Position numbers and translations under genes: made by a program. Below, in pieces: positions 21,554-62,505 of a DNA stretch of 64,000 bases. The notes under the pieces were generated by a model. That model saw only the letters and a list, made by a program, of their open reading frames with translations. It was not told the origin of the DNA and searched no databases. Each line of letters opens with the position of its first letter. Within the stretch, counting starts at the first letter, position 1. Source of the stretch: Candidatus Curtissbacteria bacterium (GTDB taxonomy: Bacteria; Patescibacteriota; Microgenomatia; Curtissbacterales; GWA2-41-24); contig JAUSJC010000010.1 of assembly GCA_030647775.1 (NCBI GenBank), forward strand, positions 338,646 through 402,645, read 5' to 3'.

Positions 21554-21558
21554 AAATT

Positions 21559-22299: not shown

Positions 22300-22345
22300 G
22301 ACTAGGCTCATAATTATTAATATGGTAATATTACCATATTGGCAA

Positions 22346-24495: not shown

Positions 24496-24502
24496 ATTCT
24501 CT

Positions 24503-26568: not shown

Positions 26569-26601
26569 ATCTGATTGATTCTACACGAAAAACTCGAATT
26601 T

Positions 26602-34583: not shown

Positions 34584-34668
34584 ATTCTGAGCGAAAATCA
34601 GAGAACCACGGCCTTAGTTCGCAAGCTCACGTTTTTGCTTCGCAAAAAGAGGCCGTGGGAATCTATTT
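34584..34668 (+). repeat. Junction repeat element, copy D (short form with 37-bp hairpin insertion)
   Basis: ATTCTGAGCGAAAATCAGAGAACCACGGCC-TTAG-[TTCGCAAGCTCACGTTTTTGCTTCGCAAAAAGA]-GGCCGTGGGAATCTATTT. Outer perfect 8-bp inverted repeat CCACGGCC/GGCCGTGG. Inner perfect hairpin TTTTTGC-TTC-GCAAAAA. Confidence 0.8.
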
Positions 34669-42104: not shown

Positions 42105-42125
42105 TGCTTGGAGATATTTCTTTCA

Positions 42126-44983: not shown

Positions 44984-45707
44984 ATTGCTTTAAGATTATT
45001 AATTTCCACCACAGCACAGTTTGCTCCGCTAAAGTTTTAGAAACGCGTCTTATATTGAAAAACTGTGATTGCCCGTGAAGTCGCGGAAAATGGTGTACGC
45101 CAATTTCCGAAAACCTGGCACCCTTCTTTTGCAATTTTTTAACAAGCTCCACGCAAATCACACCGCTATCATAATGCAGCGTAATCCCATCCATCGCCTT
45201 TTTCCTGATTAGTCTAAAGTCGCAGTCGATGTCCTTTACTTTAATATTAAAAACTATTCTTGAAAAGTGATGATAAAGAGTTCCGATAATCATTCTGTAA
45301 AACGGGTCATGCCGCTTTAGCTTGTATCCCTGAACAACATCAATACCATCGGCTATTCTTGGAAGTAGCTTTTCAATCTCTCTTACATCATATTGCCCGT
45401 CACCGTCCGTATAAAACACTAGCTCTTTTGTCGCATTTCTGAAACCGGATTTCAAGGCGCCGCCATAACCGCGGTTCTTTTCATGAAAGACAATCTTCAG
45501 TTTTGGATTATTTTTCGCCAAAGCTTTAAGGATTTTGCGGCTATTGTCGCTGGAACCATCGTCAACAACAATCACTTCCCAGTCTTCGGCAATCCTTCTC
45601 AAAACCGCGCTGGCATCGTTAACCAATTTAGCAATTGAGCCCTCGTCGTTATAGCAGGGGAAAAATACCGAAATCGAAGGTTTTGCTGTTAGTTTTTTTG
45701 TAGCCAT
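44976..45707 (-). CDS. GT2 polyprenyl-phosphate sugar synthase-like (DPM1/ArnC/GtrB-type)
   Basis: 'ISVFFPCYNDEGSI...WEVIVVDDGSSDNS'. Start set at the internal Met (MATKKLTAKP), leaving a 19-nt overlap with the upstream gene. Confidence 0.65.
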   Translation of the reverse strand: MATKKLTAKPSISVFFPCYNDEGSIAKLVNDASAVLRRIAEDWEVIVVDDGSSDNSRKILKALAKNNPKLKIVFHEKNRGYGGALKSGFRNATKELVFYTDGDGQYDVREIEKLLPRIADGIDVVQGYKLKRHDPFYRMIIGTLYHHFSRIVFNIKVKDIDCDFRLIRKKAMDGITLHYDSGVICVELVKKLQKKGARFSEIGVHHFPRLHGQSQFFNIRRVSKTLAEQTVLWWKLIILKQYD

Positions 45708-46666
45708 TTGATATATCGTTCCAGTCCTTCGTCCAAATCGGTTTGCGGTTGCCATCCAAGTAGTTTTTTCGCTTTTTCAATATTCGCCCATGTTTTTTGC
45801 GCATCACCGACCCGCGTCTCAACAGACTTTATATTTGCTTTTTTACCGGTTATCTTTTCAATTTTTGCAATAAAACTGCTTAGATTGATTGGATTACTAT
45901 TGCCGAGATTGATAATTTCAAACCCTAAACCGCTTTCAAGCGCTTTTAGTATTCCATCAACAATATCGCCGACATAAGTATAATCCCGCATGCTCCCGCC
46001 GTCACCAAAGCGGCTAATCGGCTGATCTTCCAAGATAGCATTGGTAAAAAGAGTTGGTGCCATGTCGGGCCTGCCCCGCTCTCCGTAAACCGTAAAGAAC
46101 CTTAAGCAAACAACTTTCAAACCGAAATTTTGGTGAAAACTTTCGGCAAAAAACTCCGCCGCACGCTTTGTTGCCCCATATGGCGAGATAATATTTTGGC
46201 AAAGATCATCTTCTTTAAACGGAATCTTGGGTGAATTGCCATATACCGAAGATGAGGATCCAAAAATAAACATTTTGACGCCGAAGTCTGAAGCGAGTTT
46301 TAAAAGGTTAAGTGTGCCATCAACATTTACTTTTGTGTAAAACAAAGGGTCGGCAATCGAAGGCCGCACCCCAGCTCTTGCGGCCAGATGTACAATTTTA
46401 TCCGGCTTTTCTTTTTTAAAGATATCAGACACCTTTGGAAAATTAAGGATATCTTCCCTGTATAATTTGAAATTGGTGCTCGCGAGTACCTTACTTATAT
46501 TACCTTCCTTAATTCTCGGATCGTAATAATCGTTAAAATTGTCAACCCCAATAACCTCGTAACCTTCATCAAGTAAACGATCAGTCAAATTTGAACCAAT
46601 AAACCCCGCACACCCCGTAACTAAGATTTTTGAAGCCATTGGTTTACTATACCCAAAATAATTCAA
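45689..46666 (-). CDS. UDP-glucuronate 4-epimerase-like SDR
   Basis: 'KILVTGCAGFIGSNLTDRLLDEGYEVIGVDNFNDYYDPRIK'. The N-F-N-D-Y-Y-D motif is characteristic of the UDP-GlcA/GalA epimerase clade. 'PYGATKRAAE' YxxxK. Confidence 0.55.
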   Translation of the reverse strand: MNYFGYSKPMASKILVTGCAGFIGSNLTDRLLDEGYEVIGVDNFNDYYDPRIKEGNISKVLASTNFKLYREDILNFPKVSDIFKKEKPDKIVHLAARAGVRPSIADPLFYTKVNVDGTLNLLKLASDFGVKMFIFGSSSSVYGNSPKIPFKEDDLCQNIISPYGATKRAAEFFAESFHQNFGLKVVCLRFFTVYGERGRPDMAPTLFTNAILEDQPISRFGDGGSMRDYTYVGDIVDGILKALESGLGFEIINLGNSNPINLSSFIAKIEKITGKKANIKSVETRVGDAQKTWANIEKAKKLLGWQPQTDLDEGLERYIKWLQKN

Positions 46667-49365: not shown

Positions 49366-49385
49366 TTTTTTAGACGGTTTTTTGT

Positions 49386-50123
49386 TTGAGAGATACTTTT
49401 GATATGAAAACTCCACCAGGCCCAATTGCAATTGTAATCCCAACTTATAACGAGGCTTTAAATATCAAAAACCTTATTTCTGCCGTAAGAAAAGAGGTAA
49501 AGAGGAACGACAAAATAATTATTGTAGACGATAGCACCGGTGATAATACCGCCCAAATTGTCAAAAAAATCGCCAAAAGTGATAAGAATGTTTTTGCAAT
49601 CGAGAGGAAAATTAAAAAGGGTCGGGGCTCTGCCATTTTCGAAGGTTTTCGCTTTGCCCAAAAATTCAAGCCCGCGTATTTTATCGAGATGGACGCGGAT
49701 TTTTCCCACGACCCGCAAGCTATCCCCGAACTGTTGGCCCAAATAAAAAAAGGGAGTGATGTTGTTATTGGTTCGAGGTACCTTGCCCAGAGTAAAATTT
49801 TGAACTGGCCTCTCTCAAGAAAAATATTCAGTAGGTTCTCCAACCTGTATGCAAAGTTCCTGCTGGGAGTTCCTATTTCGGATTTTACAAACGGCTATAG
49901 AATTTATAACGCTAAATCGGTTAAATTTCTTCTTGGCGAAGATCTAAGGTCAACCGGCTATATCATGCTTTCCGAAACGGCGTATAAGCTCAAAAAAGCG
50001 AAGTTTAAATTTGCTGAAATTCCCATTACCTTTATAAACAGGAAAAGGGGTAAATCCAATACTAACTTCTCAGAAATAAAGAATGCTTTTATAGGAATCT
50101 TAAGGATTCGTTTTACTAAATAA
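49386..50123 (+). CDS. GT2 polyprenyl-phosphate sugar synthase (DPM1/ArnC-like)
   Basis: 'IAIVIPTYNEALNIKNLI...KIIIVDDSTGDNT', 'EMDADFSHDP', 'VVIGSRY'. No C-terminal TM. Confidence 0.7.
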   Translation: MRDTFDMKTPPGPIAIVIPTYNEALNIKNLISAVRKEVKRNDKIIIVDDSTGDNTAQIVKKIAKSDKNVFAIERKIKKGRGSAIFEGFRFAQKFKPAYFIEMDADFSHDPQAIPELLAQIKKGSDVVIGSRYLAQSKILNWPLSRKIFSRFSNLYAKFLLGVPISDFTNGYRIYNAKSVKFLLGEDLRSTGYIMLSETAYKLKKAKFKFAEIPITFINRKRGKSNTNFSEIKNAFIGILRIRFTK

Positions 50124-51290
50124 ATTTCGGTAGTCAGGTTTTTCCTTGAGGAAGTCAGCAATAATATGCGCGGCTAAATCATGACCAGCTGTTTTCCAGT
50201 GAGCATCATAGTCAAAATAAAGCTTGGAAGAATCAACGTCTTTGAATTTGTCTAGTAGATCGATAAAAGCGATATTTTTCGAAGTCAAAAATTCCTCCAG
50301 CTTTTTATTAACTCCGGTCGTTTCTCCCTCGGTGAGCTTTTCCCATCCGCAACAAAGGCTTTCGGCAGCTTGCTCTTTTGTCGGTATAATTAAAACCAAA
50401 AATTTCGTACCATTTTTATTGAGCAAATCGCCTGTTGCGCCAATTACCTTTCTCACTTTTTGCCATTCGTTTTCATATTTAGGGAAACAGCTTTCAATGA
50501 AAATACATTCATCATAAATTGAAGTAGCCTCCTTTTCCGGGTCAAAATTGGAATTTTTATCAAACCCAGTGATTAATCTGTCAAAAAAAGACGATTTATA
50601 AGAATAAATTAACTGAAAAAGATGGGAGTTTCTTAGAATTGGAATTTGAAATCTCTTTCTCGGCTTAACAAATTGTAAATGTCCAAAGTTATCAACGGTT
50701 CGTAGTCTAGACTCAATTCTCTTTGGCAAACCGCCAGTGTCAACATCTACCCACTGAGTTTCAGCCAAGTCCGAAATATCATTCCATACAAAAAACCCCA
50801 TCACTACCAAATCCGGTTTAAGAGCTAGACCCTTTTCTTTCAGAAACAAATAGTAACTATCAGGAGAAAATCCTGATGCATACCCGCCATTAATAATCTC
50901 GACGTTTTCACCTTGATCTCGTAGAATATTTTCCAGAACTGCAGAGTAAGTTTGCTCGTCAGAAACACCATGTCCGAAGGTGAAAGAATCGCCAACGGTT
51001 AAAATTCTAAGAGTTTCAGCTGGTTTTTCCTTTTCAAGCTCTTTTCCTCTAAAACCTTGGCTATTGATTCTAACCGAATGAGAAAATTCTTCCTGCCGAA
51101 AGTAGCAAGTTGTATCCTTCTTAAGTTCGAATGGCAAAAGATCACTTTTGGCAAAGCATGCAGGTGATTGGCCGATGTCGAAGTTCAATGTTTCTTGGGG
51201 ATGAAACTTTGCTAAAACCATTTCGCCAGTCGCGATCGCCGCCATTATCGACAGAATCGAAATTAATAAAAAACGCCACTGCCAACTCAT
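50100..51290 (-). CDS. Membrane-anchored SGNH/GDSL-type hydrolase or O-acyltransferase, paralogue 3
   Basis: 'LRILTVGDSFTFGHGV', 'GGYASGFSP', 'DYDAHWKTAGH'. N-terminal TM helix. Confidence 0.5.
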   Translation of the reverse strand: MSWQWRFLLISILSIMAAIATGEMVLAKFHPQETLNFDIGQSPACFAKSDLLPFELKKDTTCYFRQEEFSHSVRINSQGFRGKELEKEKPAETLRILTVGDSFTFGHGVSDEQTYSAVLENILRDQGENVEIINGGYASGFSPDSYYLFLKEKGLALKPDLVVMGFFVWNDISDLAETQWVDVDTGGLPKRIESRLRTVDNFGHLQFVKPRKRFQIPILRNSHLFQLIYSYKSSFFDRLITGFDKNSNFDPEKEATSIYDECIFIESCFPKYENEWQKVRKVIGATGDLLNKNGTKFLVLIIPTKEQAAESLCCGWEKLTEGETTGVNKKLEEFLTSKNIAFIDLLDKFKDVDSSKLYFDYDAHWKTAGHDLAAHIIADFLKEKPDYRNLFSKTNP

Positions 51291-52280
51291 CTATAGAGAT
51301 TTAAAATATTCAATAGTGGCTAAAAGTCCATCCTCAAGTTTAAATTTTGGTTTCCAGCCAAGCACTTTTTTTGCTTTTGAAATATCAGGATTTCTAAAAA
51401 ATGGGTCATCCGTGGGAAGAGGCTGCGAAAATACGATTTCACTATCGCTTCCTGATAGTTCTTTAATCATTTGCGCAAATTCCAAAATCGTCCGCTCATC
51501 CGGGTTGCCCATATTGTAAACCTCACCGGTCTTGCCTTCTTCCATAGCAAGAATTTGTCCCTCAATCTGGTCATCAATAAAGCAAAACGAACGGGTCTGC
51601 TTGCCGTCGCCATAAATAGTAATCGGTTCATTTTTTATTGCCTGATTAATGAAGTTAACAACCGCTCTTCCTTCCAGCGGGTTCATTCTTGGACCATAGG
51701 TATTAAAAATTCTTGTAATCCTCGCGTCTAGTCTTTTTTCGCGTACAAACGAAGAAACAATTGTTTCTCCAAACCTTTTCGCTTCATCGTAAACCGATCG
51801 TGGTCCAGTCGTCGAGACGTTGCCTCGGTAATTTTCGCTTTGCGGGGAAACTTGCGGGTCACCATATATTTCCGAAGTGGAAGAAAAAGAAAGTTTCGCC
51901 TTATGTTTTAGCGCCAGCTCACACATATTCCATGTTCCGATTGTATTAACCTGCATCGTTTCAAAAGGATGTGCCAAGTAAGAAAAAGGGGAGTGGATAT
52001 TCGGATCGGCAGGCGATGCGAGATGGTAAATCTCATCAATCTTATTAAACTTTTTACTTTTAAACGGTTTAATTACGTCATGGTTTATAAAGGTAAAATT
52101 TTTACGGGAAAGCAGATGGACGATATTTTTCTGCGAACCCGTCAAAAGGTTATCCAAGCAAATTACAGTGTCGCCCCCTTCAACAAGCTTCTCGCACAAA
52201 TTGGAGCCGATGAATCCGGCACCACCGGTAATTAAAATCACTTTGTTCATAAATAACAAATTACAATTAACAAAAAACAA
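51291..52280 (-). CDS. UDP-glucuronate decarboxylase (UDP-xylose synthase / ArnA-C-terminal-like)
   Basis: 'VILITGGAGFIGSNLCEKL', 'CLDNLLTGSQKNIVHL' (DNxxTG..N), 'GPRSVYDEAKRFGETI' (YDEGKR motif) are UXS/ArnA-decarboxylase signatures. Confidence 0.7.
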   Translation of the reverse strand: MFFVNCNLLFMNKVILITGGAGFIGSNLCEKLVEGGDTVICLDNLLTGSQKNIVHLLSRKNFTFINHDVIKPFKSKKFNKIDEIYHLASPADPNIHSPFSYLAHPFETMQVNTIGTWNMCELALKHKAKLSFSSTSEIYGDPQVSPQSENYRGNVSTTGPRSVYDEAKRFGETIVSSFVREKRLDARITRIFNTYGPRMNPLEGRAVVNFINQAIKNEPITIYGDGKQTRSFCFIDDQIEGQILAMEEGKTGEVYNMGNPDERTILEFAQMIKELSGSDSEIVFSQPLPTDDPFFRNPDISKAKKVLGWKPKFKLEDGLLATIEYFKSL

Positions 52281-52313
52281 ACAATATCAAAATTCTAATA
52301 CAAAAACTCTAAA

Positions 52314-52679
52314 CTACTTACTCTTTTCAATTATAGAACTAAAGATTTTAAGTAGCTCTGTGGATTCTATTATAAGCAATTTCCTTTTTTCCTCTAAATC
52401 TTTGCTATCACCTGTATTGCATAATCTAAGCCAAAGACGGCTTTCTTTTACTTCTTTGCGACAGATTTTGGTTCTCATCACAAAATCTTTTTTACTTAGT
52501 GATTCATTTGCTTCAATATAATTAGCCGCTTGAGACCCTGACGATCGAACCAATTGTTTGCTATATTCATTGTTCGCAATAGACCTTGGAAGTTCTGTTG
52601 TAAAGTTTTTGCAATTTTCAGCAAATTTAAATGTCCTTTCCTCTAAATCGTACCTTTTAGAGTTTTGAACATTGGTCAT
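52314..52679 (-). CDS. Four-helix-bundle protein (23S rRNA intervening-sequence protein family)
   Basis: 121 aa. 'SSGSQAANYIEANESLSKKDFVMRTKICRKEVKESRLWLRL' matches the conserved EA...S..DF...KE..ES.YWL core. Confidence 0.55.
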   Translation of the reverse strand: MTNVQNSKRYDLEERTFKFAENCKNFTTELPRSIANNEYSKQLVRSSGSQAANYIEANESLSKKDFVMRTKICRKEVKESRLWLRLCNTGDSKDLEEKRKLLIIESTELLKIFSSIIEKSK

Positions 52680-52723
52680 TGTTTGTGTTTTGGTGCTTGT
52701 TATTTGAATTTTCCTAGAAAAGG

Positions 52724-53863
52724 TTACACTACCTTTTCTAGTACGGCAGCAATAAAATCCATTTCTGATTTTTTAAGTTGCGGGTACATTGGAAGCCTTA
52801 TCAAAGTCGCCGCCACTTCTTCCGTGACCGGCAGGTCTCCCGCCTTGTAGCCAAGCTTTTTGCCCATCGTTGAGCTGTGCAGCGGCAAATAGTGGAATGA
52901 GGCTTCAATGCCAAAAGACCTTAAATCAGAAATTACTTTGTCTCGTATAATCCGGGGCACGCGTATCGCAAATATATGCCAATTCGCCTCCGACCCTTCG
53001 CTTTTTGTCGGCAGAATAATTTTTGAAGATAGTTTCTCAAGCTTTTCCAAAAAGTACTCGGCATTTTGGCATCGAAGTTGGGTAATTTGGTCAAGTTTCT
53101 TAATCTGTTCCAGGGCAATTGCCGAAAGGATATCGGAAAGCACCAGGCTTCTGCCGACACCTACCCATGAATATTTCTTCCTTTCCCCTCTCATGAAAGA
53201 AGACCTGTCCGTGCCTTTTTCACGGATTATCTCGGCTAGCTTGTTTGCCTTTTTATCGTTTGTTATAAATGCCCCGCCCTCCCCACTGGCTGCGTTTTTT
53301 GTTCCATGAAATGAATAGCAGCCAATATCGCTGATAGTTCCTAGATACTGGCCCTTATATTTTGCTCCAAGGGCATGCGCCGCGTCCTCGACAACATAAA
53401 GGTTATACTTTTGTGCGATTTTACTGATAGTTTCCATGTCGCAGGCGAGCCCAGCGTAGTGGACGACCATGACTGCCCGCGTTTTAGGAGTTATAAGTTT
53501 TTCAATTTCAGCTGGATTTATATTGTAAGTTTTTATATCGATGTCGCAAAACACCGGTTTTGCTCCAGAAAGGAGTATTGCGTTAGCGCAGGACGCAAAA
53601 GTAAAACTGGGCAAAATTACCTCATCACCCTGTTTTAAAAGGCAACTGCAGGCAAGCTCTAGCGCCGCCGTTCCGGAGTTTGTCGGCAGTACATACTGCA
53701 CGGAGAATTTTTGAGCCATAGTTTGAGCGAGAAGCTCGCTATAAGAAAGATCGCCAACCCCTGTTCCTGTCCTCATCGCGTCTATTGCCGCGTGCTCTTC
53801 TTCTTTTCCCCAAAACGGTTTATGTAGAGGGATTTTAAATTTCGCCAGGTGTGCGCTAGTCAT
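52724..53863 (-). CDS. DegT-family PLP aminotransferase (ArnB-like UDP-4-amino-sugar aminotransferase candidate)
   Basis: 'LPTNSGTAALELAC', 'PSFTFASCANAI', 'VVEDAAHALGA'. Adjacent to the UXS-like and ArnC-like genes. Confidence 0.75.
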   Translation of the reverse strand: MTSAHLAKFKIPLHKPFWGKEEEHAAIDAMRTGTGVGDLSYSELLAQTMAQKFSVQYVLPTNSGTAALELACSCLLKQGDEVILPSFTFASCANAILLSGAKPVFCDIDIKTYNINPAEIEKLITPKTRAVMVVHYAGLACDMETISKIAQKYNLYVVEDAAHALGAKYKGQYLGTISDIGCYSFHGTKNAASGEGGAFITNDKKANKLAEIIREKGTDRSSFMRGERKKYSWVGVGRSLVLSDILSAIALEQIKKLDQITQLRCQNAEYFLEKLEKLSSKIILPTKSEGSEANWHIFAIRVPRIIRDKVISDLRSFGIEASFHYLPLHSSTMGKKLGYKAGDLPVTEEVAATLIRLPMYPQLKKSEMDFIAAVLEKVV

Positions 53864-54593
53864 TTAATTTGTTAATCATATCTTTATACTTCCCTCTAAA
53901 AGCAAGCAGCTTCCTGAAGTAATTAGCGCTGTCCGGTATAAGCCTGACTGTCGATTTTTTATCCTCTCGCCTTATAAAAAGAACCGGAACCTGACTTATT
54001 TTGAGTCCCCCGAAGTGGGCAAGCATACAAATTTCCGTATCAAAGAACCAGCCATCGTCACGTGATTTGGCAATGATTGGTAAAATTTTGGCCTTTCTAA
54101 AGAACTTAAACCCTGCTTCTGTGTCGGTGAATGGAGCCTTAAGGAGCATCGAAACGACAAAAGAATATGCTTTTGAAGATACCGTTCTGGCGATTGCATG
54201 CGGTTGGTTTTCATAAAATCGGGTCGCAATCGCCACATCATTCCCTTTTTTTATTTCCTCAATGAAAATCGGAACATAAGACGGTGAAATTTCGCAGTCA
54301 ACATCGATAAACCCACAAATCTCGCCATCGGCGACCAAAATACCGTCCCGCACCGATTTGCCGCGTCCTTCATTAATCTTATGCAAAATGAGCTTGGAGT
54401 TTTTGATTTGCCTACAAATTCTTTCAAGAGTTTCCAATGTCGAGTCGCTGCTTTTATCCTCAACAAAAATAACTTCCCATGTTCCCTTGAGTTTTTTTAA
54501 TTCTCCTACAATTTTCCCGACATTATCCTCAAAAGTCGGCCCCTCGTTGTAACAGGCAAGAATCAGTGAGAAGTCACAAGTCTTAGGTACCAT
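53856..54593 (-). CDS. GT2 polyprenyl-phosphate sugar synthase (ArnC/DPM1-like)
   Basis: 'FSLILACYNEGPTFEDNV...WEVIFVEDKSSDST', 'IDVDCE'. 8-nt overlap with the aminotransferase. Confidence 0.65.
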   Translation of the reverse strand: MVPKTCDFSLILACYNEGPTFEDNVGKIVGELKKLKGTWEVIFVEDKSSDSTLETLERICRQIKNSKLILHKINEGRGKSVRDGILVADGEICGFIDVDCEISPSYVPIFIEEIKKGNDVAIATRFYENQPHAIARTVSSKAYSFVVSMLLKAPFTDTEAGFKFFRKAKILPIIAKSRDDGWFFDTEICMLAHFGGLKISQVPVLFIRREDKKSTVRLIPDSANYFRKLLAFRGKYKDMINKLND

Positions 54594-54694
54594 TTTCCTT
54601 TGCGTATATTCTAAGGCAAAGAATAGAACTTCTCAATTATCAGCTTCTTTTGGTATTGCAAAGGAATTCGTTTTTACACTATTATTACCGGGAT

Positions 54695-54823
54695 ATGGCC
54701 GCCGGTTCCGTTGAAGCTCAGGAACTTACTAAATACCCGCTCACAAAATCGGTTCTGGATATAGGCTGCGGCTTTGGGGAATTTCGGTGGGTTAATATTT
54801 ACCATTCCAAATTATGCTTATAA
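54695..54823 (+). pseudogene. Remnant of a class I SAM methyltransferase (43-codon N-terminal fragment)
   Basis: Translates to 'MAAGSVEAQELTKYPLTKSVLDIGCGFGEFRWVNIYHSKLCL*'. 'VLDIGCGFGEF' is a perfect MTase motif I. Locally GC-rich. The stop overlaps the start of the following membrane gene. Confidence 0.35.
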
Positions 54824-56505
54824 TCGCCAAGCCTATGATCAACATACGTAAATATCTTCATCCTGCCACGCTTTTTGCAATAACCTTCATTACAGCCCTT
54901 GTTTTTCCACTCTATCAATTCATCCATTCAGGAGATTTCTTAACTCACGACAGGGCAGTTCATGCGTTTAGGACCAGTGAATATTATAGTGCTTTGGTTG
55001 CAGGGCATATCCCACCCCGTCTTGCACCCTACTTTTTAGGTGGATCTGGTTATCCGCTATTTTTGATGAATTACCAGCTGCCTTATCTCGTGGGTTCAGC
55101 GTTTCTTGCAATAGGATTATCTGCCGAAATCACAGTCAGGATACTTACAGTGTTTAGCTACATATTATATGCCGCTGGTGGATTTCTGTTTTTTAAAACA
55201 ATCGCCTCCCGTAAAATTGCCGCCCTGGCAACTTTAAACCTTGTCTATACTCCTTACCTTTTTGCAAACATCTTTATTCGAGGCGCTCTACCGGAATTTA
55301 TGGCCTCTGCGATACTGATGTGGATCCTATATGCTATTTCAAGTCATAAACAAAAAAACTTTCCTACGCTTGTTGTGGGTTGTCTTTTAGGCCTCCAGCT
55401 GTTGACACAAACAACAGTAGCGCTAATAGGTCTACCACTGGTCATTATGGTAACATCCCTTTCCGGAGGTAAGAGATGGCTTTCGTGGTGTGCTTCTGCC
55501 ATGTTTGCTTACGCAATCGGTGGCCTACTGGCGTCTTTCATATTGATTCCAGCCGTCTTTGAACGACATTACTTTCAGTTTGATACCCAAACCCACACTT
55601 TCATTAACAATCATTTTATTCCCTTGACCCAGCTGATTAAGCTGCCTTTTTTCCATACAACTGACAGTGCGCTAGAGTTAAGCTTTACGCAGACTTTTTT
55701 GATGATCGCATCTCTCGTTTTGCTGCCTTTTGGGAGAAAATTAGCAAGTTTTTGGGCTTTTGGTCTCCTTGCTCTTTCATGGTGTTTTCTCTACCTAATT
55801 ACGCCCCAGGCCGGTTTTTTGTGGAATAATGTCTCCATTATTCAGGCAGTAGTGTTTCCATGGCGTCTACTTACACCCATATCCATTACCGTAAGTATCC
55901 TACTTATTTACCTTATAAAACTGCACAGGCGCTTGTTTGTACCGGCTGTAGTTTTAACTCTTATGTCTATGTTTCTGACCAGACATTTCATTAAACCCGT
56001 AGAGTTTAGTGCCCAGTTCGTTCAAATTTCAGACCAATATGTTACAGGAACAACCGATGGAGTATTCACACCCATTGGAGCGCGAACAGATAAAACACTA
56101 ATTACTCTGCCCTCTGTAAGAATACTAAGTGGTAGGGCGCAAGTATTGCAAAATGAACAATCAGTTGGCAGATGGATTGCCCGTGTCATAGTAGATGAAG
56201 CTGCCACTGTCCAGGCAAAAGTACTCTATTTCCCAGGGTGGCGCTTCTTTGTCAATGGGCATGAGCAGCTCATCCCATATCCGATTGTTACACATTATCC
56301 AAATAGTTATCCCGGACTTCCGGAAATAGGCTTATCTACCGGTGTTTATACATTAGAGTTTCGTTATGTGGAAACAACTTTACGGAAAGTAGGGAATATT
56401 TTAAGCTTAAGTACCTTTTTAATGCTATCAATTTGTCTACTTAAAAAAAGTAAAATATTGAAATTTATGCCGATTTGTAGAGGACGCCGTAATCGAGAAA
56501 CATAA
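54814..56505 (+). CDS. Polytopic membrane protein, unclassified (candidate GT-C acceptor-side glycosyltransferase)
   Basis: About 12 TM helices plus a ~170-aa C-terminal domain. Divergent from the ArnB/ArnC-like genes. Confidence 0.45.
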   Translation: MLIIAKPMINIRKYLHPATLFAITFITALVFPLYQFIHSGDFLTHDRAVHAFRTSEYYSALVAGHIPPRLAPYFLGGSGYPLFLMNYQLPYLVGSAFLAIGLSAEITVRILTVFSYILYAAGGFLFFKTIASRKIAALATLNLVYTPYLFANIFIRGALPEFMASAILMWILYAISSHKQKNFPTLVVGCLLGLQLLTQTTVALIGLPLVIMVTSLSGGKRWLSWCASAMFAYAIGGLLASFILIPAVFERHYFQFDTQTHTFINNHFIPLTQLIKLPFFHTTDSALELSFTQTFLMIASLVLLPFGRKLASFWAFGLLALSWCFLYLITPQAGFLWNNVSIIQAVVFPWRLLTPISITVSILLIYLIKLHRRLFVPAVVLTLMSMFLTRHFIKPVEFSAQFVQISDQYVTGTTDGVFTPIGARTDKTLITLPSVRILSGRAQVLQNEQSVGRWIARVIVDEAATVQAKVLYFPGWRFFVNGHEQLIPYPIVTHYPNSYPGLPEIGLSTGVYTLEFRYVETTLRKVGNILSLSTFLMLSICLLKKSKILKFMPICRGRRNRET

Positions 56506-56824: not shown

Positions 56825-58105
56825 TCATTTCAGACATTGTTGATACCAAGTGAAACAAACATTGTAATTCTTTTCCGGGAACCAAAAACCTATTGCCTCT
56901 CCTGTCCCCAAAGCATAGTAAGCATCAAGAGAAGTTGAAATTCCATTATCACCTAAAATAAGCCTTGTACCAGGAGGGGGATTATCCGTTTCTATTTTTG
57001 TTAAATATATTTTTGCTAAATCGCTTCTTTTGATAACCCAACTGTTCTCTTGTAAAGTAACAACACCGAAAGCGTTAACTACAACAATTGCCATGATTAA
57101 AAGATAAGCGACATATTTAGGGGTTTGAGCAAGTGTTAGGCCGATGAGCATTGCCAGTCCCCATAAAGAAATATTCATGTAGTGGGGTGAAAGGTGGTTT
57201 GGAATTAAAACAAATGGGAGAAGGCCAATAAATATTACGAAAGCCGCGAAGATAAAAATTCTCTTGTCCGCTTTTTTCATAAGTTCGTGTGTGGTAAATA
57301 CACCGACTGTCAAAAGCCATAGCGCCAGCACCCCCGAAAGGATATTTAAATCTGTGCCCTCAACAAAACCGGGGATTCTCAAAAGATAATACTTCAAAGC
57401 TGTCAAAATACTTGGCGAAATTTCGATCTTGTAGGCATCAACCGCTGCGCTCGGAAACAAAAAGACAAGTTGGATGAAAGCAAAAATCGCGGAAACTACG
57501 CCGGTCAAAATTATCGGTTTTCCGATTCTCAACTTCCCACTTTCCAAAAAGTCCCATGCCAAAAATATTCCCGCACCGATAACCATTGCCTCGGATGCTA
57601 GTAGCGAAGTGATAAATAAGCCTACAGAAAGGGCAAACTTTTTTGAGAGGTAAAAATAAAATGAGGCAATTAAAAATGTAAAGCCGATTAATGTTGCCCC
57701 GCCGGAAATCCAATAAAGTGAAACAAAGTGTACGGGGGAGATTAAATAAAACACGGCAGAGCAAATTGCCGTTAGCCTATTTCTGGTGATTTTTATCATG
57801 GTTTTATAAATCAAAAAACCGCCGGTGATATGGATAATGAAAGTCAGAAGGTGATAGCCGAAATAATTTTTGCCAAATAGGCTATCACTTACAAAAAAGT
57901 AAAGGTTATGGATTGGCCGCCAGTGGGTGACGGTTGGTGCCCCAAAAACATTCCTTAAATTCGTTAAGAATCCATTTTGAGAAAAATGATTGATTAAAAT
58001 AAAATCATCCTGGGCAAAGAAATTGAAAAACGATTTATAAAAAACAAGTGCGCCGCCAGCCGCCAAAAGCAGAAAAACTAAAATATCTTTCCTCACTGTT
58101 TCCAT
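56825..58105 (-). CDS. Polytopic membrane protein, unclassified (possible GT-C glycosyltransferase)
   Basis: About 11 TM helices. 'KSFFNFFAQDDFILINHF' acidic first-loop motif after TM1. C-terminal ~60-aa soluble tail. Confidence 0.45.
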   Translation of the reverse strand: METVRKDILVFLLLAAGGALVFYKSFFNFFAQDDFILINHFSQNGFLTNLRNVFGAPTVTHWRPIHNLYFFVSDSLFGKNYFGYHLLTFIIHITGGFLIYKTMIKITRNRLTAICSAVFYLISPVHFVSLYWISGGATLIGFTFLIASFYFYLSKKFALSVGLFITSLLASEAMVIGAGIFLAWDFLESGKLRIGKPIILTGVVSAIFAFIQLVFLFPSAAVDAYKIEISPSILTALKYYLLRIPGFVEGTDLNILSGVLALWLLTVGVFTTHELMKKADKRIFIFAAFVIFIGLLPFVLIPNHLSPHYMNISLWGLAMLIGLTLAQTPKYVAYLLIMAIVVVNAFGVVTLQENSWVIKRSDLAKIYLTKIETDNPPPGTRLILGDNGISTSLDAYYALGTGEAIGFWFPEKNYNVCFTWYQQCLK

Positions 58106-58118
58106 TTTAGCACCTGCG

Positions 58119-59723
58119 TTGTCGCTAGGGACTTGCCCTATATATAATAGGGAAGTGAGATTATTAAAAATCCTGCTTGTAACCGCCTTCCTAAATGCCC
58201 TAGTCTGGATTATTATTGTTCCCGTCTGGCAATACCCCGACGAGCAAGCCCATTTTGCCCAGGTTCAATATTTGGCGGAAAACGGCAGGACACTTCACGA
58301 CAGCAAGGCCTTCGATACTTCTTACGAAATAGCTCTGTCAGAAAAAATTCTTGGGACTGAAAGGGACATAGGCGGTAATAACAAATTCATTTACCATCCT
58401 GAATTTAAAATCGGCTATTCTAAAACTTTAACTGGACCAAATGAGGGAAAAATTGCCAATTTACCCAAATCCGCCCGCTCTCGATTCGTAAAAAATGAGG
58501 CCACCCAAAATCCGCCGCTTTACTATTACCTTGGATCGGTTGTCAACAAGATATTCTCTTTTGGCGACCTTTTTACAAGGGTTTATGCCATAAGGGTAAT
58601 GTCAGCACTTATTTTTACTGGAACAATAATAGTTGCTTACAAAATAGGCGGGTTGATATTTGCCGGAGAAATTTTACCCCTGACGTTAGCAGCTATTATC
58701 GCATTCAAGCCAATGCTGGTTTTTTCTTCAACAGGCGTTTTACCGGATACCCTAACTAATTTTCTGTTCAGCCTTTTTATATTTTTATCTCTTAAAATAA
58801 TCAAATTTGGCATCTCGCCATCTAAAATTTTGGCCGTCTTGTTAATTATCGCGGCTGGCGCCGCGACTCGACAAAATTTTCTAATTACCCTGTTCATTTT
58901 CCCTTTGGTAATTTTACATCAATTAATCTTCAATAAAAAATCAAGACAGAAAGTAGTCTTTTTAATTATTTTCTGCGGTTTTCTGCTTTATGCGGCGAGC
59001 TTTTTCATTCCCGGAATGGATTTTATTCACCGCTTTGATTTCCCTGAATCCACAAGCCATAACCAATCGAACCCGCTGTTCCATATGGGGTTTGTTGACC
59101 ACTTTAAGTGGACGCTAAACCATACATTTAGGGAGGTTTGGCCTTGGTATTGGGGAATTTATAAATGGTTATCACTTCCTCTGCCTCACATAATTTACCA
59201 AATCATAAATAGGCTAACCCTTTTGTCGCTAGTTGGGCTTATTGTTTGGACAGTCCAACTAGCGAGAAGAAGGGAAGCGAAAAAAGAAATCCCGCTGATT
59301 TTTACTGTATCCACCGCTGTCATTTACTTCATGATGATAACTGTTTTCGACTATTTTTTTAGAAAAAATAATGGCTATTCTTTCGGTATTCAGGGGAGAT
59401 ATTTTTTCCCGGTAGTAATTCCCCAAATGGCAATCCTTTTAACCGGTTTTTGGGTCTTATTTGTTGTAATTCTTAGAAAATACGCAAGAATCGGAATTTT
59501 TATTATTTTAATTCTGGTCTTCATTTTTAATTCCATTTCGCTATTCGTCGTAGCTTCTTCGTATTACGATACCGGCAATTTACAAACGTTTATTAGGGAG
59601 GCGAGCCAATATAAACCATTAATTTTTAAAGGCAATATTATTATTTTAGTAATAGTTCTTTCCTTTGTCTCACAACTCTTTTTCCTCTTTAACTACGTAA
59701 GGGATATAATAAAAGAAAAATGA
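58119..59723 (+). CDS. DUF2142-like polytopic membrane protein (putative GT-C glycosyltransferase)
   Basis: 'IIVPVWQYPDEQAHFAQVQY' resembles the DUF2142 N-terminal P-D-E..H motif. 12+ TM helices. Confidence 0.45.
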   Translation: MSLGTCPIYNREVRLLKILLVTAFLNALVWIIIVPVWQYPDEQAHFAQVQYLAENGRTLHDSKAFDTSYEIALSEKILGTERDIGGNNKFIYHPEFKIGYSKTLTGPNEGKIANLPKSARSRFVKNEATQNPPLYYYLGSVVNKIFSFGDLFTRVYAIRVMSALIFTGTIIVAYKIGGLIFAGEILPLTLAAIIAFKPMLVFSSTGVLPDTLTNFLFSLFIFLSLKIIKFGISPSKILAVLLIIAAGAATRQNFLITLFIFPLVILHQLIFNKKSRQKVVFLIIFCGFLLYAASFFIPGMDFIHRFDFPESTSHNQSNPLFHMGFVDHFKWTLNHTFREVWPWYWGIYKWLSLPLPHIIYQIINRLTLLSLVGLIVWTVQLARRREAKKEIPLIFTVSTAVIYFMMITVFDYFFRKNNGYSFGIQGRYFFPVVIPQMAILLTGFWVLFVVILRKYARIGIFIILILVFIFNSISLFVVASSYYDTGNLQTFIREASQYKPLIFKGNIIILVIVLSFVSQLFFLFNYVRDIIKEK

Positions 59724-60274
59724 AGGCACTTGATGAAATCGGCGGCAAAAAAACCATAAGATTTATTCTCTTTGCCTTGGCGCAGGTTATCTATCATCGC
59801 CTTATCCTGCATTTATTTTTCTTCCCGCCGGCAAGAAAACTCTTCCTGCAGATTTTAGGAGCAAAAGTTGGCAAAAACTCAATTCTTATGGAAGTTAAAT
59901 TTTTCAACTGGTATCATCGTGGTCCATCCGGCCTTAAGATCGGCAATGATTGTTTTATTGGCGATGAAACCCTAATCGATCTCTACGATGAGGTCGTTTT
60001 GGAAAATCAGGTAACACTTGCCCCGAGGGTGACGGTTCTAACCCACATGAATGTCGGTTACAGCGACCATCCGCTTCAAAAAGCGTTCCCAAAAATGTCC
60101 AAGCCGGTTATTTTCAAAAGTGGTTGCGTCGTTGGTGCCGCCAGTACCATCCTGCCGGGGATCACGATTGGCGAAGGATCTTTTGTCGCTGCTGGCAGCG
60201 TAGTTACTAAAGATGTTCCTTCCGGTTGTCTTTACGCCGGTAACCCCGCAAAGCTTCTTAGGAAAATTAAGTAA
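59720..60274 (+). CDS. Hexapeptide-repeat (LbH) sugar O-acetyltransferase (WcaF/Mac-like)
   Basis: 'IGNDCFIGDETLIDLYDEVVLENQVTLAPRVTVLTH' and 'GCVVGAASTILPGITIGEGSFVAAGSVVTKDVPSGCLYAGNPAK' are LbH repeats with the C-terminal NPAK tail. Confidence 0.7.
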   Translation: MKALDEIGGKKTIRFILFALAQVIYHRLILHLFFFPPARKLFLQILGAKVGKNSILMEVKFFNWYHRGPSGLKIGNDCFIGDETLIDLYDEVVLENQVTLAPRVTVLTHMNVGYSDHPLQKAFPKMSKPVIFKSGCVVGAASTILPGITIGEGSFVAAGSVVTKDVPSGCLYAGNPAKLLRKIK

Positions 60275-60276
60275 AG

Positions 60277-60834
60277 ATGTGTCTCTATAACAAGTTAAGA
60301 TATCTAATATTGCCTATCAGGCAAATAGATAGCGCTCTACCGTCAAGTGGCCAAATCGTCGACCTTGGCTGTGGTCAGGGTATCCTGGCCGCTTATCTGG
60401 CGAGGAGAAAAGAGCGCAATGTCATAGGCGTAGATCTCGACGCAGCTAGGTTGCCAAACAAAGAGTTGGCAAACCTTAAATTTATAAAGGCCGATATCAC
60501 TAAATACAATCTAAAAAACGTCGACGGTATTGTCATTTCCGACGTCCTTCACCATATAAGCCGTGTCGACCAAAGTGAACTTCTTGCCAAAATCGCCAAA
60601 GGTTTAAAGAGAGGGGGTATCCTTGTTATCAAAGAAATAGATTCGAAAGAATTTATCAGAAGCAAGCTTACCAGGCTCTGGGATTTTATTCTCTACCCCC
60701 ATGATGAAATTTCTTTCTCGAATTCCCAAACACTCACGCGAAATCTAAAAAGGTTAGGTTTTAATGTTAACGTCCAAAGGGTGGTTACATGGTTTCCCGG
60801 CTCAACCACTCTCTACATATGTACAAAAAGATAA
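60277..60834 (+). CDS. Class I SAM-dependent methyltransferase
   Basis: Motif I 'IVDLGCGQGILAAYLA'. 'GIVISDVLHHI'. 'GGILVIKE'. Confidence 0.6.
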   Translation: MCLYNKLRYLILPIRQIDSALPSSGQIVDLGCGQGILAAYLARRKERNVIGVDLDAARLPNKELANLKFIKADITKYNLKNVDGIVISDVLHHISRVDQSELLAKIAKGLKRGGILVIKEIDSKEFIRSKLTRLWDFILYPHDEISFSNSQTLTRNLKRLGFNVNVQRVVTWFPGSTTLYICTKR

Positions 60835-62465
60835 GCAGAGCTTTTCCGCGAATAAGCGAAGCTTTTCTACGAATAAGCAGAGCTTTTCTACGAATAAGCA
60901 GAGCTTTTCTACGAATAAGCAGAGCTTTTCATCAAATAATAAAATTTTGGCCAATTGCTACTCTTCTTTTAATAACCCTTATTTCAAGAATCATAAATTT
61001 AGAAAAACTTTTCTATTTTACCTACGATGAATCAATCCCGGCTTTTGTCGGCCGCCGCCTCATTCTTTGGTATCACATTCCCTTAATCGGCGGCGCCACG
61101 CCGTTTGGTTTTCACCTTGGCCCTTATTTTTACTGGTTTTACGCCGCGCTTCTTGCCGTCGGCCGTCTTAACCCGCTTGTCTGGGGATATGCCGCTACAG
61201 TCATTTCAGTATTTACTACCTTATTAATGTATATTGTCGGCAAGAACTTCGGCGGCAAAAAAGTCGGTATTACCGCGGCAGTGTTCTGGACGTTTTCGTA
61301 CCTTGCTAATATCTACGACCGCCATCTCTGGGCGCTTTTCTGGGGCCCGCTAACTAGCCTTTTAGTTTTGTTTTTCTTAGAAAAAATAATTTCCGGCCGT
61401 CAAAAATTCATTTATCTGCTTGCCTTAACAATTGGTCTTTCCATTCATGCCGATCCGTCGAATATTATCTTTGTCATTCTTGCCGTTTTTGCTTTCGCCT
61501 ACTGGAAGGTGTCTATCAAGAAGAATCTATCGATTCTTTTTGCGGCCATTATTCTTTTTACCCTTCCGCTTGTTGCTTTTGACCTTCGCCACGATTTTGC
61601 CAATATCCGCCCGACTGCAGGTTTCATCAAGGCCGGCGCAAACACCCCGGCAATCCGTACCCAAAAATTCGTTACCAATTCGCTTCTGTTCCCGCAGGCG
61701 GCAACACGCCTTGTCTATACTTTTGGGGATAACCAAGTTGCTAAACAGTATTCCTATTGCAAAAACTTCGTCGCCGAAAAGTTTGCCGCCACTGCTCAAA
61801 TCTTTGTTTTCTTATCCGCCTTTGCCATTCTTGCTTTCATCCTCTGGTCTTTCAAAAACCGCCAAAGTTTATGGTTTCTTGTTTCCAGTTTATTGTTGCT
61901 CTACTTCCTCGGCATCCAAATTTATGGCACGATTCTCGGCGGTGACATTTTTGAGCACTACATCACTGGCCTTTTCCCGGCGTTTTTACTAATTACCGCC
62001 TTTTTTGTAAGCAAATTACCCAAAAAACTTTGGCTTGTTGCCCTTGGCATTTTTGTCGCCGCCAATCTTTATAAATTATCGCTTGCTCAAAACAGTCAGG
62101 GGCTGACCGAAAAAAGAGAAGCAATTGAATATACAATGCGGCAGGTGGGGGATAAACCATTTTCGCTTGACTCCCTGTCAACCTGCTGGAAGTTGAATGG
62201 CTACCGCTATCTTTTTGCCGTTTACGGTAGGGAGCCGGTCAAAAGTTATGTCGACCCAAATTTTGCCTACCTTTATGGTACTACCCCGGTCTGGGATCAT
62301 CATCCGGCGACTGTCGTCGCCTTTGTGGTTCACGACTACGCCCCCGAAACTCAAGCCTTTTACCAACGCTACGCCCTTTTAAAATCCCACCAAATTTCCT
62401 CATCCAAATTTGGCTCCATTGAGGTAATCGTAATGGATAACTCAACAGGCTGGTTTGATAAATAG
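60819..62465 (+). CDS. PMT_2/ArnT-like polytopic membrane glycosyltransferase with N-terminal 7-aa tandem-repeat tail
   Basis: 'FYFTYDESIPAFVGRRLILWYHIPLIGGATPFGFHLGPYFYW' first-loop motif. Start assumed at 'MYKKISRAF' (16-nt overlap with the MTase). N-terminus holds (ISRAFLR)x4 encoded by a 21-bp tandem repeat. Confidence 0.55.
   Translation: MYKKISRAFPRISEAFLRISRAFLRISRAFLRISRAFHQIIKFWPIATLLLITLISRIINLEKLFYFTYDESIPAFVGRRLILWYHIPLIGGATPFGFHLGPYFYWFYAALLAVGRLNPLVWGYAATVISVFTTLLMYIVGKNFGGKKVGITAAVFWTFSYLANIYDRHLWALFWGPLTSLLVLFFLEKIISGRQKFIYLLALTIGLSIHADPSNIIFVILAVFAFAYWKVSIKKNLSILFAAIILFTLPLVAFDLRHDFANIRPTAGFIKAGANTPAIRTQKFVTNSLLFPQAATRLVYTFGDNQVAKQYSYCKNFVAEKFAATAQIFVFLSAFAILAFILWSFKNRQSLWFLVSSLLLLYFLGIQIYGTILGGDIFEHYITGLFPAFLLITAFFVSKLPKKLWLVALGIFVAANLYKLSLAQNSQGLTEKREAIEYTMRQVGDKPFSLDSLSTCWKLNGYRYLFAVYGREPVKSYVDPNFAYLYGTTPVWDHHPATVVAFVVHDYAPETQAFYQRYALLKSHQISSSKFGSIEVIVMDNSTGWFDK
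60831..60935 (+). repeat. Tandem repeat, 21-bp unit x5 (ATAAGCAGAGCTTTTCTACGA consensus; first and last units degenerate)
   Basis: Direct reading: 60831-60851, 60852-60872, 60873-60893, 60894-60914, 60915-60935. Units 3 and 4 are identical. Confidence 0.85.
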
Positions 62466-62505
62466 CGTTGTAACCCTAAAACCACTAAACTATACTTAAA
62501 TTCAA

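Follow-up and report, generated by a model that had tools for sequence, protein, structure and literature searches.

Multi-component ("three-component") glycosylation systems are known both from monoderm bacteria, where CsbB/GtcA/YfhO, GtlA/GtlB and GacI-J-K-L have been described and where a soluble GT-A glycosyltransferase can be combined with a Wzx-type flippase and a membrane transferase of the GT-C fold (PMC8035078), and from Gram-negative bacteria, in which they include GtrA/B/V and the GT136 pentofuranose systems (PMC11127046). When considered from the point of view of sugar chemistry, a further precedent is provided by CalS9 and AtmS9, enzymes of the UDP-xylose synthase (UXS) type that release a 4-keto-pentose for a pyridoxal phosphate (PLP)-dependent transaminase making a 4-aminopentose (PMC10338323). 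The locus considered here is a compact cassette encoding a family 2 glycosyltransferase (GT2), a DegT-family aminotransferase and a UXS-type UDP-GlcA (UDP-glucuronic acid) decarboxylase, and it lies in a 64-kb stretch of a Candidatus Curtissbacteria genome (contig JAUSJC010000010.1), which is referred to in its full length as the window. The best explanation for this cassette is a multi-component transmembrane glycosylation pathway of Microgenomates-type bacteria of the Candidate Phyla Radiation (CPR). A lipid-linked architecture, in which the GT2 works together with GT-C membrane transferases, is considered likely, and the full pathway statement, which includes an aminopentose as the sugar, is put forward tentatively, at a little under an even chance.

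The genes that form or border the cassette are the following (window coordinates):

50100..51290, minus strand: SGNH/AlgX-like protein, 396 aa, with an N-terminal hydrophobic anchor (Pfam ALGX 2e-11 plus a GDSL block)
51291..52280, minus strand: predicted UXS-type UDP-glucuronate decarboxylase, an SDR (short-chain dehydrogenase/reductase) of the extended type, 50% identical to human UXS1
52314..52679, minus strand: four-helix-bundle protein (23S rRNA IVP / TIGR02436, by profile matches), 121 aa, between the DegT and UXS genes
52724..53863, minus strand: predicted DegT/DnrJ/EryC1 PLP-dependent sugar 4-aminotransferase of the WecE clade, 379 aa (E 2e-97)
53856..54593, minus strand: GT2 without transmembrane (TM) helices, 245 aa, candidate polyprenyl-phosphate glycosyltransferase (Pfam Glycos_transf_2)
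54814..56505, plus strand: predicted GT-C-fold membrane protein, 563 aa, PF10131 (PTPS_related)/YfhO-like, with the NCBI start at 54835
56825..58105, minus strand: predicted GT-C-fold membrane glycosyltransferase, 426 aa, the conserved partner (by synteny and GT-C fold)

All of the open reading frames listed in the original prediction are present at the coordinates and on the strands given there, and its broad family calls hold. The host is a CPR/Microgenomates bacterium, Candidatus Curtissbacteria: in a metagenome-assembled genome of that group, Q7S45_04455 and Q7S45_04460 match the 563-aa and 426-aa proteins at 100% identity. The window has a GC content of about 38%, and no tRNA or Rfam features were detected in it. 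Searches of the window with family profiles and Escherichia coli protein queries returned no homologs of lipopolysaccharide (LPS) genes, RmlA, Ugd, ArnD, ArnE, ArnF or ArnT, which agrees with the earlier remark that the locus has no LPS gene context. Since the CPR clade is treated as monoderm (bioRxiv 10.1101/2021.05.31.446380), this absence has a ready explanation. When the interval 49.9-58.4 kb was scanned for promoters and terminators, the numbers were about those expected by chance (19 vs 19.4 and 9 vs 8.3), so that no operon boundaries can be drawn from it.

The decarboxylase probably starts at the ATG at 52250 (MNKVILITGG), which yields a protein of 319 aa and matches the 319-320 aa of its orthologs. 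In a search of the PDB, human UDP-xylose synthase structures score 323-326 bits, the next match reaching 156, and the identity to UXS1 is 50% over 315 residues, compared with 27% to E. coli RffG (RmlB) and 26% to E. coli ArnA-C (residues 314-660). The window protein and its CPR orthologs, which are 69-79% identical in the ten related loci described below, share the motifs STSEIYG, YDEAKR and QTRSF, and the equivalents of UXS1 Thr118/Glu120, Tyr147/Lys151 and Arg277 (roles of the catalytic residues in PMC3438964) are kept in the window protein. Judged by sequence, it is a genuine UXS-type UDP-GlcA decarboxylase. Of the earlier "UXS/ArnA-C-like" label, therefore, the first half stands and the second does not: the score against the ArnA model is 89.1 bits where the NF005998 cutoff is 777, and ArnA is not among the PDB matches at E<=1e-20. 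Membership of the U4kpxs class was likewise rejected (107 bits vs an equivalog cutoff of 294). The protein also does not group with RmlB-type dTDP-glucose 4,6-dehydratases, a placement that the original prediction had raised against its own reading; it scores 158 bits against a TIGR01181 cutoff of 365, and RmlB structures reach about 95-117 bits against 326 for UXS1.

The aminotransferase belongs to a different lineage from the one first proposed. It passes the cutoff of NF008687 (dTDP-4-amino-4,6-dideoxygalactose transaminase, WecE) with 406.2 bits against 375, and its top PDB matches are WecE structures at 274 bits, with ArnB structures ranking eighth and lower at 161-179 bits. Identities amount to 42% with E. 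coli WecE, 42-45% with enterobacterial WecE proteins and 31% with E. coli ArnB, whose model (NF008658) gives 222 bits against a cutoff of 631. The sequence thus indicates a WecE-type C4 aminotransferase and not an ArnB-type one: the assignment to DegT sugar 4-aminotransferases was correct, the ArnB equivalence was not, and the grouping with hexose enzymes that had been named as speaking against the aminopentose idea is, in spirit, what was found. The enzyme recurs at 72-92% identity in over 120 protein clusters, whose sources are Curtissbacteria, Gottesmanbacteria and further Patescibacteria. By established stereochemistry, the WecE product bears a galacto (axial) amine, which on a pentose corresponds to the L-arabino configuration.

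The GT2 gene overlaps the start of the DegT gene by 8 nt and encodes a protein with a DVD motif, whose sole PDB matches at E<=1e-5 are PfDPMS, GtrB and ArnC, all of them weak (39-44 bits). Orthologs occur in 10/10 related loci at 54-68% identity. Membership of ArnC itself was rejected, given 22% identity to the E. coli protein, a score of 39.4 bits against a cutoff of 529 for NF007986 and a sequence without hydrophobic C-terminal helices. The protein is accordingly proposed, on the strength of its solved relatives, to be a polyprenyl-phosphate glycosyltransferase (DPMS/GtrB/ArnC class) that has no TM helices, which preserves the "DPM1/ArnC-like" designation at the level of the class and not at that of ArnC.

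Two polytopic proteins encoded next to the GT2 are candidates for the outer-face transferase. According to confident structure models (pLDDT 90 and 92), the 563-aa and the 426-aa protein share the GT-C fold; both are polytopic in the GT-C manner and carry, in the first extracytoplasmic loop, an acidic motif that is conserved. In the family of the 563-aa protein, whose NCBI-annotated start lies 7 codons after the start of the open reading frame at 54814, D46 is invariant inside a conserved HD motif; in the family of the 426-aa protein, the invariant residues are Q32, D33 and D34. The 563-aa protein itself has no Pfam match, but its family comprises more than 4,000 cluster representatives, and 50 of the 61 aligned members match PF10131 and 10 match YfhO. 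OST, PMT and Aft enzymes are at least as near to it as ArnT is. E. coli ArnT has no BLAST match in the window, and ArnT/GT83 membership was rejected for both proteins; the GT-C fold foreseen for the 563-aa protein is thus retained and its identification with ArnT is not, the protein being PF10131/YfhO-like and not conserved. Its ortholog is found only in very close relatives, PF10131 proteins of 25-29% identity filling the same slot in four related loci and none in five, and it is therefore a variable second GT-C between the conserved GT-C and the GT2. The 426-aa gene, just outside the module as first delimited (56825-58105, the module ending at 56505), is the conserved one. Its product is proposed to be the transferase that uses the polyprenyl-P-sugar, and the family appears, by source names, to be restricted to CPR bacteria.

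Conservation of gene order was assessed in ten independent loci (L003, L008, L009, L010, L015, L017, L019, L021, L022 and L023), which come mostly from contigs encoding homologs; scans of genome and metagenome contigs with aminotransferase peptide patterns gave 1 and 3 close loci. The co-directional order GT2, DegT, UXS is found in all ten and is contiguous in nine, the tenth (L022) having a four-helix-bundle gene between DegT and UXS. Packing is tight, often with overlaps of 1-14 nt or gaps of 0-6 nt, and in L015, L017 and L023 the DegT and UXS genes overlap by 4 nt. A homolog of the 426-aa gene lies upstream of the GT2 in nine of the ten, the contig of L009 ending early, and in L003, L010, L015, L017 and L023 it directly adjoins the GT2 on the same strand. 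One of these loci, L003 (CAYTEJ010000009.1), is labelled 'uncultured Gammaproteobacteria', yet over about 13 kb it carries the CPR cassette with unchanged gene order and 52-77% identity to the window, and it is probably a mis-binned Patescibacteria contig.

The four-helix-bundle gene of the window was missing from the module as originally listed. A copy of 66% identity occupies the same DegT/UXS junction in L022 (7190-7555), and the gene is missing from the other nine loci, in which DegT and UXS abut or overlap. Either the gene has inserted more than once at this junction, or it is ancestral and was lost repeatedly. For the present purpose it is an inserted passenger, outside the pathway.

Taken together, these data lead to the following proposal. 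In the cytoplasm, the UXS-type enzyme would oxidatively decarboxylate UDP-GlcA, and WecE-type amination of the resulting pentose, with L-arabino outcome, would give a UDP-4-amino-4-deoxy-pentose. The TM-less GT2 would then move the sugar onto polyprenyl phosphate, and the lipid-linked sugar would be flipped, possibly by the conserved Wzx-like protein encoded further along the locus. Finally, a GT-C, for which the 426-aa protein is the conserved candidate, would transfer the sugar to a surface glycan or protein of the monoderm cell, with the 563-aa PF10131 protein as a variable extra GT-C. Built in this way, the cassette is Arn-like in its working but assembled from non-orthologous families and without a formylation/deformylation cycle. 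The general route foreseen in the original prediction, from nucleotide sugar to polyprenyl-P-sugar to an extracytoplasmic GT-C outside any LPS context, is reasonable because UXS, 4-aminotransferase, GT2 and GT-C genes are clustered and because GT2-DegT-UXS forms a tight unit in 10/10 loci. Gene families, synteny and tight packing are directly observed, as are the modelled GT-C folds; the coupling of UXS and aminotransferase, the identity of the sugar, the lipid carrier, the flippase and the acceptor are what we infer from them. A more specific version, in which CPR bacteria make polyprenyl-P-linked 4-amino-4-deoxy-pentose of the L-Ara4N (4-amino-4-deoxy-L-arabinose) configuration by a convergent route that dispenses with the formyl cycle, and in which a CPR-specific GT-C family decorates surface glycans or proteins with this cationic sugar, is possible but rather unlikely.

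The sugar is the point on which the pathway is most exposed. It would be either a 4-amino-4-deoxy-pentose, as with CalS9/AtmS9, or UDP-xylose alongside a separate 4-amino-6-deoxyhexose. Several observations weigh against the aminopentose. The aminotransferase meets the curated cutoff for a dTDP-4-keto-6-deoxyglucose transaminase and not that for ArnB. The decarboxylase looks ordinary, keeping the Glu-Arg gate by which human UXS1 retains the intermediate, and its similarity to bona fide UDP-xylose synthases is at the usual level for bacterial UXSs, so that the default product would be UDP-xylose. Glycan loci, moreover, routinely place genes for different sugars side by side. All of the related loci belong to one superphylum (DegT 73-89% identical), and the synteny may therefore reflect shared descent and not selection for coupling. 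E. coli ArnE and ArnF queries had no match in the window, and neither a GtrA-type nor an ArnE/F-type flippase was found, no GtrA-specific search having been made; a pair of N-acylation and deacylation genes was not found either. Between 44 and 60 kb, every unassigned open reading frame of at least 80 aa overlaps a larger gene. On the side of the aminopentose stand CalS9 and AtmS9, UXS-type decarboxylases that feed a 4-keto-pentose to PLP transaminases; the product outcome or ratio of the UXS class is not readable from sequence or structure (PMC10338323).

The leading alternative is a mixed-precursor locus, in which the UXS would make UDP-xylose for the GT2 (as polyprenyl-P-xylose) or for another transferase, and the WecE-type enzyme would separately make a 4-amino-4,6-dideoxyhexose (dTDP-Fuc4N-like) from an NDP-4-keto-6-deoxyhexose produced elsewhere in the genome. 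The genes would then be adjacent by serving the same surface glycan, not by using each other's products. Both enzymes fit their individual parts in this arrangement, one passing the WecE equivalog cutoff and the other having half of its residues in common with UXS1 and every residue of the reduction step, and the island around them mixes many precursor pathways. In L023, a CDP-glucose/4,6-dehydratase-like pair shows that NDP-hexose dehydratase routes do occur in such islands. That pathway, however, is of the CDP type and confined to L023, and the pair was rejected as a source of RmlA/RmlB. Searches with RffH (RmlA) and WecD gave no match, either in the window (tblastn at E<=0.01) or, at E<=1e-5, in the related loci; WecF was found in neither, and an RmlB ortholog is absent from the window, where the best RffG match is the UXS itself (27%), and from the related loci at more than 35% identity. 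The negatives for RmlA and RmlB cover the window and the related loci, that for Ugd covers the window, and rmlAB and ugd might lie elsewhere in the genome. Against the mixed-precursor arrangement stands also the constant pairing of DegT and UXS, tightly packed and often translationally overlapping, which together with the missing RmlA, RmlB and WecD speaks for the aminopentose. The mixed-precursor locus is a serious contender, with odds somewhat below even and slightly behind those of the aminopentose.

A second alternative concerns the GT2, which might be an ordinary chain-building glycosyltransferase acting on a lipid-PP-oligosaccharide, with the UXS and DegT products going into a polymer that is built in the cytoplasm and exported by Wzm/Wzt or Wzx, and the GT-C proteins serving as polymerases, ligases or users of unrelated donors. 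The same conserved backbone includes a Wzm/Wzt transporter (41352-42908) as well as a Wzx-like gene (62506-63729), and the low scores of the GT2 against DPMS, GtrB and ArnC, together with its lack of their TM helices, would suit such a role. Nevertheless, every solved relative above threshold is a polyprenyl-phosphate glycosyltransferase, soluble forms that work alongside a membrane partner of their own have been described (PMC8035078), and the island repeatedly pairs a short GT2 with a GT-C, as in the block formed by 49386-50123 and 48040-49365, which is shared with L019. A chain-building role is therefore judged improbable, and the lipid-linked GT2-plus-GT-C architecture is retained.

The original prediction went further than an analogy, describing a split ArnA and a possible ArnD-like deacylase, and the two genes on which this rested have other contexts. 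The SGNH protein is 28% identical to two paralogs in the window (46783-48120 and 37036-38232) and gave only marginal SGNH esterase matches in a PDB sequence search. An ortholog is missing from all ten related loci, in which only paralog-level matches of 30% occur. It was rejected as a pathway component or CE4 deformylase, the SGNH family being unrelated to ArnD, and E. coli ArnD has no match in the window. With its N-terminal hydrophobic segment the protein is predicted to face outward, and the gene is a lineage-specific addition at the 3' end of the operon, probably encoding an extracytoplasmic O-acyl esterase or transferase. The stand-alone formyltransferase, 27 kb from the cassette, overlaps a DUF4910 gene by 4 nt and forms part of a NeuB/PseB/cytidylyltransferase cluster. 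Its nominal top PDB match, the ArnA N-domain, is marginal (31.8 bits, 27% identity over 129 aa) and is followed by GDP-perosamine formyltransferase (29.5 bits), PurN (27) and PseJ (22); none of the ten related loci has a homolog. A literal Arn pathway, with the UXS as ArnA-C, 23701-24495 as ArnA-N, the SGNH protein as an ArnD-like deformylase and the 563-aa protein as ArnT, thus mirrors ArnA-C, ArnB, ArnC and ArnT only superficially and is scarcely credible, given that every NCBIfam Arn model, including those for ArnA, ArnB and ArnC, misses its cutoff by a wide margin, that identities to E. coli Arn proteins are 22-31%, that ArnD, ArnE, ArnF and ArnT have no match in the window, that gene context and synteny contradict both supposed extra members, and that the host is a monoderm CPR bacterium without lipid A.

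The cluster in which the formyltransferase sits (18196-27468) is of the pseudaminic/legionaminic type and is devoted to nonulosonic acids. It also encodes a GFO/IDH oxidoreductase, a DUF4910/DUF2172 aminopeptidase-like protein with a helix-turn-helix domain and a further SDR, and the DUF4910-formyltransferase overlap suggests that the nonulosonic acid of this CPR bacterium is N-formylated. Its main assigned genes are:

18196-19503: PseC-like DegT aminotransferase
21559-22620: cytidylyltransferase (CMP-transferase)
23701..24495, plus strand: short formyltransferase (Formyl_trans_N domain)
24503-25552: NeuB
25549-26568: PseB-like gene (306 bits vs a cutoff of 408)

Beyond the cassette, the neighbourhood is also partly conserved. 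On the divergent side, homologs of the 426-aa gene are faced by genes for a DUF2142 protein, a hexapeptide acyltransferase, a methyltransferase, an approximately 520-aa membrane protein and a Wzx-like protein. In the window, these genes are:

58119..59723, plus strand: polytopic DUF2142 membrane protein, the divergent neighbour (Pfam DUF2142 7e-23)
59720..60274, plus strand: hexapeptide-repeat acyltransferase, 184 aa (Pfam Hexapep)
60277-60834, plus strand: methyltransferase (Pfam Methyltransf_23)
60789-62465, plus strand: membrane protein, 558 aa
62506-63729, plus strand: Wzx/MOP-family flippase candidate (Pfam Polysacc_synt)

DUF2142 homologs of 42-58% identity are divergent from the 426-aa gene in L003, L008, L010, L015, L017, L019, L021 and L023, and homologs of the hexapeptide acyltransferase, 58-74% identical, occur in L008, L015, L017, L019, L021 and L023. 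The PDB matches of the acyltransferase are mixed, sugar N-acetyltransferases standing beside O-acetyltransferases of the LacA/Maa type at about 55 bits, and the protein may O- or N-acetylate the glycan or sugar. The order of methyltransferase, membrane protein and Wzx-like gene (60277..63729) is the same in L010, L015 and L017 and partly so in L008 and L023.

On the other side of the cassette, the UDP-GlcA 4-epimerase-like gene was correctly recognised in the original prediction, and its homologs (60-68% identity) are conserved neighbours, lying 0-4.5 kb after the UXS gene in 10/10 loci. Its PDB matches comprise 5u4q (232 bits), which was deposited as a dTDP-glucose 4,6-dehydratase, the Bacillus cereus UGAepi structure 6zl6 (208 bits) and MoeE5. 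The gene precedes a second GT2-SDR-DegT trio (42905-45755), and in the related loci, too, it is usually followed by such a trio, Wzm/Wzt and a PMT_2 GT-C. The corresponding window features are:

45689..46666, minus strand: UDP-GlcA 4-epimerase-like SDR (PDB matches)
44976-45755: GT2 of the second trio
44000-44983, minus strand: SDR of the second trio
42905-43999: DegT aminotransferase of the second trio
41352-42908: Wzm/Wzt ABC transporter

A recent duplication of the two cassettes was rejected, as the paralogs are only 23-34% identical. In the SDR of the second trio, GTRNQYG replaces STSEIYG and INGVNAIAGEK replaces VYDEAKRFGE (Tyr to Asn; Lys to Ala or Ser), and this loss of the canonical catalytic residues of extended SDRs is kept in three genomes (the window, L017:15720-16703 and L019:17333-18313). 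The best PDB and NCBIfam matches of this protein are weak and mixed (CDP-tyvelose 2-epimerase, RmlB and LegB, about 115-136 bits).

Between UXS and the epimerase-like gene lies a variable slot (window 46783-50123; L019:12263-15590; L015:12096-14080; L017:12087-14068). In the window and in L019 it holds a block made up of an SGNH gene, a gene for a GT87-like membrane protein of 441 aa and a GT2 gene, at 47-60% identity; in L003, L015 and L017 a methyltransferase and a 447-aa GT87-like protein; in L010 only a methyltransferase-like gene; and in L022 an extra DegT that is 71% identical to window 11633-12826, the slot being empty in L008, L009, L021 and L023. GT2/GT-C pairs thus appear to be swapped as modules. 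The L023 pair mentioned above (L023:10659-12394) is located 3 kb downstream of the cassette and consists of a glucose-1-phosphate cytidylyltransferase-like gene (288 bits vs a cutoff of 300) and a CDP-glucose 4,6-dehydratase-like gene, which by sequence indicates probable CDP-activated deoxyhexose synthesis in some islands.

Viewed as a whole, the entire window is a glycan-assembly island that mixes many precursor pathways. At least 10 PMT-like, GT-C-like or unassigned polytopic proteins are encoded in it, at the following positions:

7275-8990, 9982-11544, 12839-14167, 14139-15845, 15832-17631, 28950-30716, 34663-36321
39508-41355, 48040-49365, 54814-56505, 56825-58105, 58119-59723, 60789-62465

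To these are added five or six short GT2s, four DegT aminotransferases, many methyltransferases, three paralogous membrane SGNH proteins, Wzm/Wzt and the Wzx-like gene. For a genome whose main contig measures about 0.5 Mb, 64 kb of glycan assembly is a large outlay. CPR bacteria are uncultivated, ultra-small and probably episymbiotic, and their surface chemistry likely governs attachment to the host. A strongly conserved cassette in which a proposed lipid-carrier glycosyltransferase is joined with a C4 aminotransferase and a UDP-GlcA decarboxylase, within a Curtissbacteria glycan island of at least 64 kb, is of interest in this respect, and a literature search found nothing on CPR or Microgenomates glycosylation combined with UDP-xylose or nucleotide sugars. 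If the aminopentose reading were true, cationic surface modification of the Ara4N type would reach beyond lipid A, in a clear case of convergent pathway assembly; the L-Ara4N version would further mean that modification of surface charge by aminoarabinose had been invented independently outside Gram-negative bacteria. Even if the sugar is not an aminopentose, a tractable set of four enzymes and an apparently CPR-specific GT-C family would be left.

How, then, does the cassette compare with the systems already described? Like the Arn pathway (PmrHFIJKLM) of E. coli and Salmonella, it brings together, packed in one operon, a UDP-GlcA decarboxylase, a DegT C4 aminotransferase, a GT2 that would load polyprenyl phosphate and a GT-C for the outer face, and the axial amine of a WecE-type enzyme would, on a pentose, likewise lead to the L-arabino configuration. 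In contrast to Arn, its decarboxylase is of the UXS clade, its aminotransferase of the WecE clade and its GT2 only distantly similar to ArnC and devoid of TM helices; its GT-Cs are not ArnT orthologs, equivalents of ArnA-N, ArnD, ArnE and ArnF are missing, and its monoderm host lacks lipid A. The dTDP-Fuc4NAc branch of enterobacterial common antigen (RffH/RffG/WecE/WecD) shares with the cassette the lineage of the aminotransferase, which passes the WecE model, but RffH, an RffG ortholog, WecD and WecF are absent from the window and related loci, and the constant neighbour is instead a UDP-GlcA decarboxylase.

In the calicheamicin and AT2433 pathways, CalS9/AtmS9 and CalS13/AtmS13 resemble the cassette in that a UXS-type decarboxylase feeds a DegT-family transaminase with no formyltransferase involved (PMC10338323). 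These pathways differ in belonging to secondary metabolism and in ending at a Leloir glycosyltransferase, with neither a lipid carrier nor a GT-C. The PDB entries 4zwv and 4xau, which we take to be AtmS13 structures (the database title reads only 'putative aminotransferase'), score 92 bits against the window aminotransferase, compared with 274 for WecE. As for the multi-component systems, the common logic is that a GT-A/GT2 enzyme makes a C55-P-sugar, and a flippase and a GT-C-fold transferase then decorate a surface polymer. GacI/GacK/GacL, with a soluble GT-A and a Wzx-type flippase, match the TM-less GT2 and Wzx-like gene of the locus, and CsbB/GtcA/YfhO find an echo in the YfhO/PF10131-like GT-C. 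The known systems use common donors (UDP-Glc, UDP-Gal, UDP-GlcNAc and PRPP), whereas the GT2 described here shares its operon with dedicated UXS and aminotransferase genes, which points to an unusual pentose or amino sugar. The nearest relatives of the cassette are thus of three kinds: the multi-component glycosylation systems for its architecture, the CalS9/AtmS9 branch for its chemistry and WecE for the lineage of its aminotransferase.

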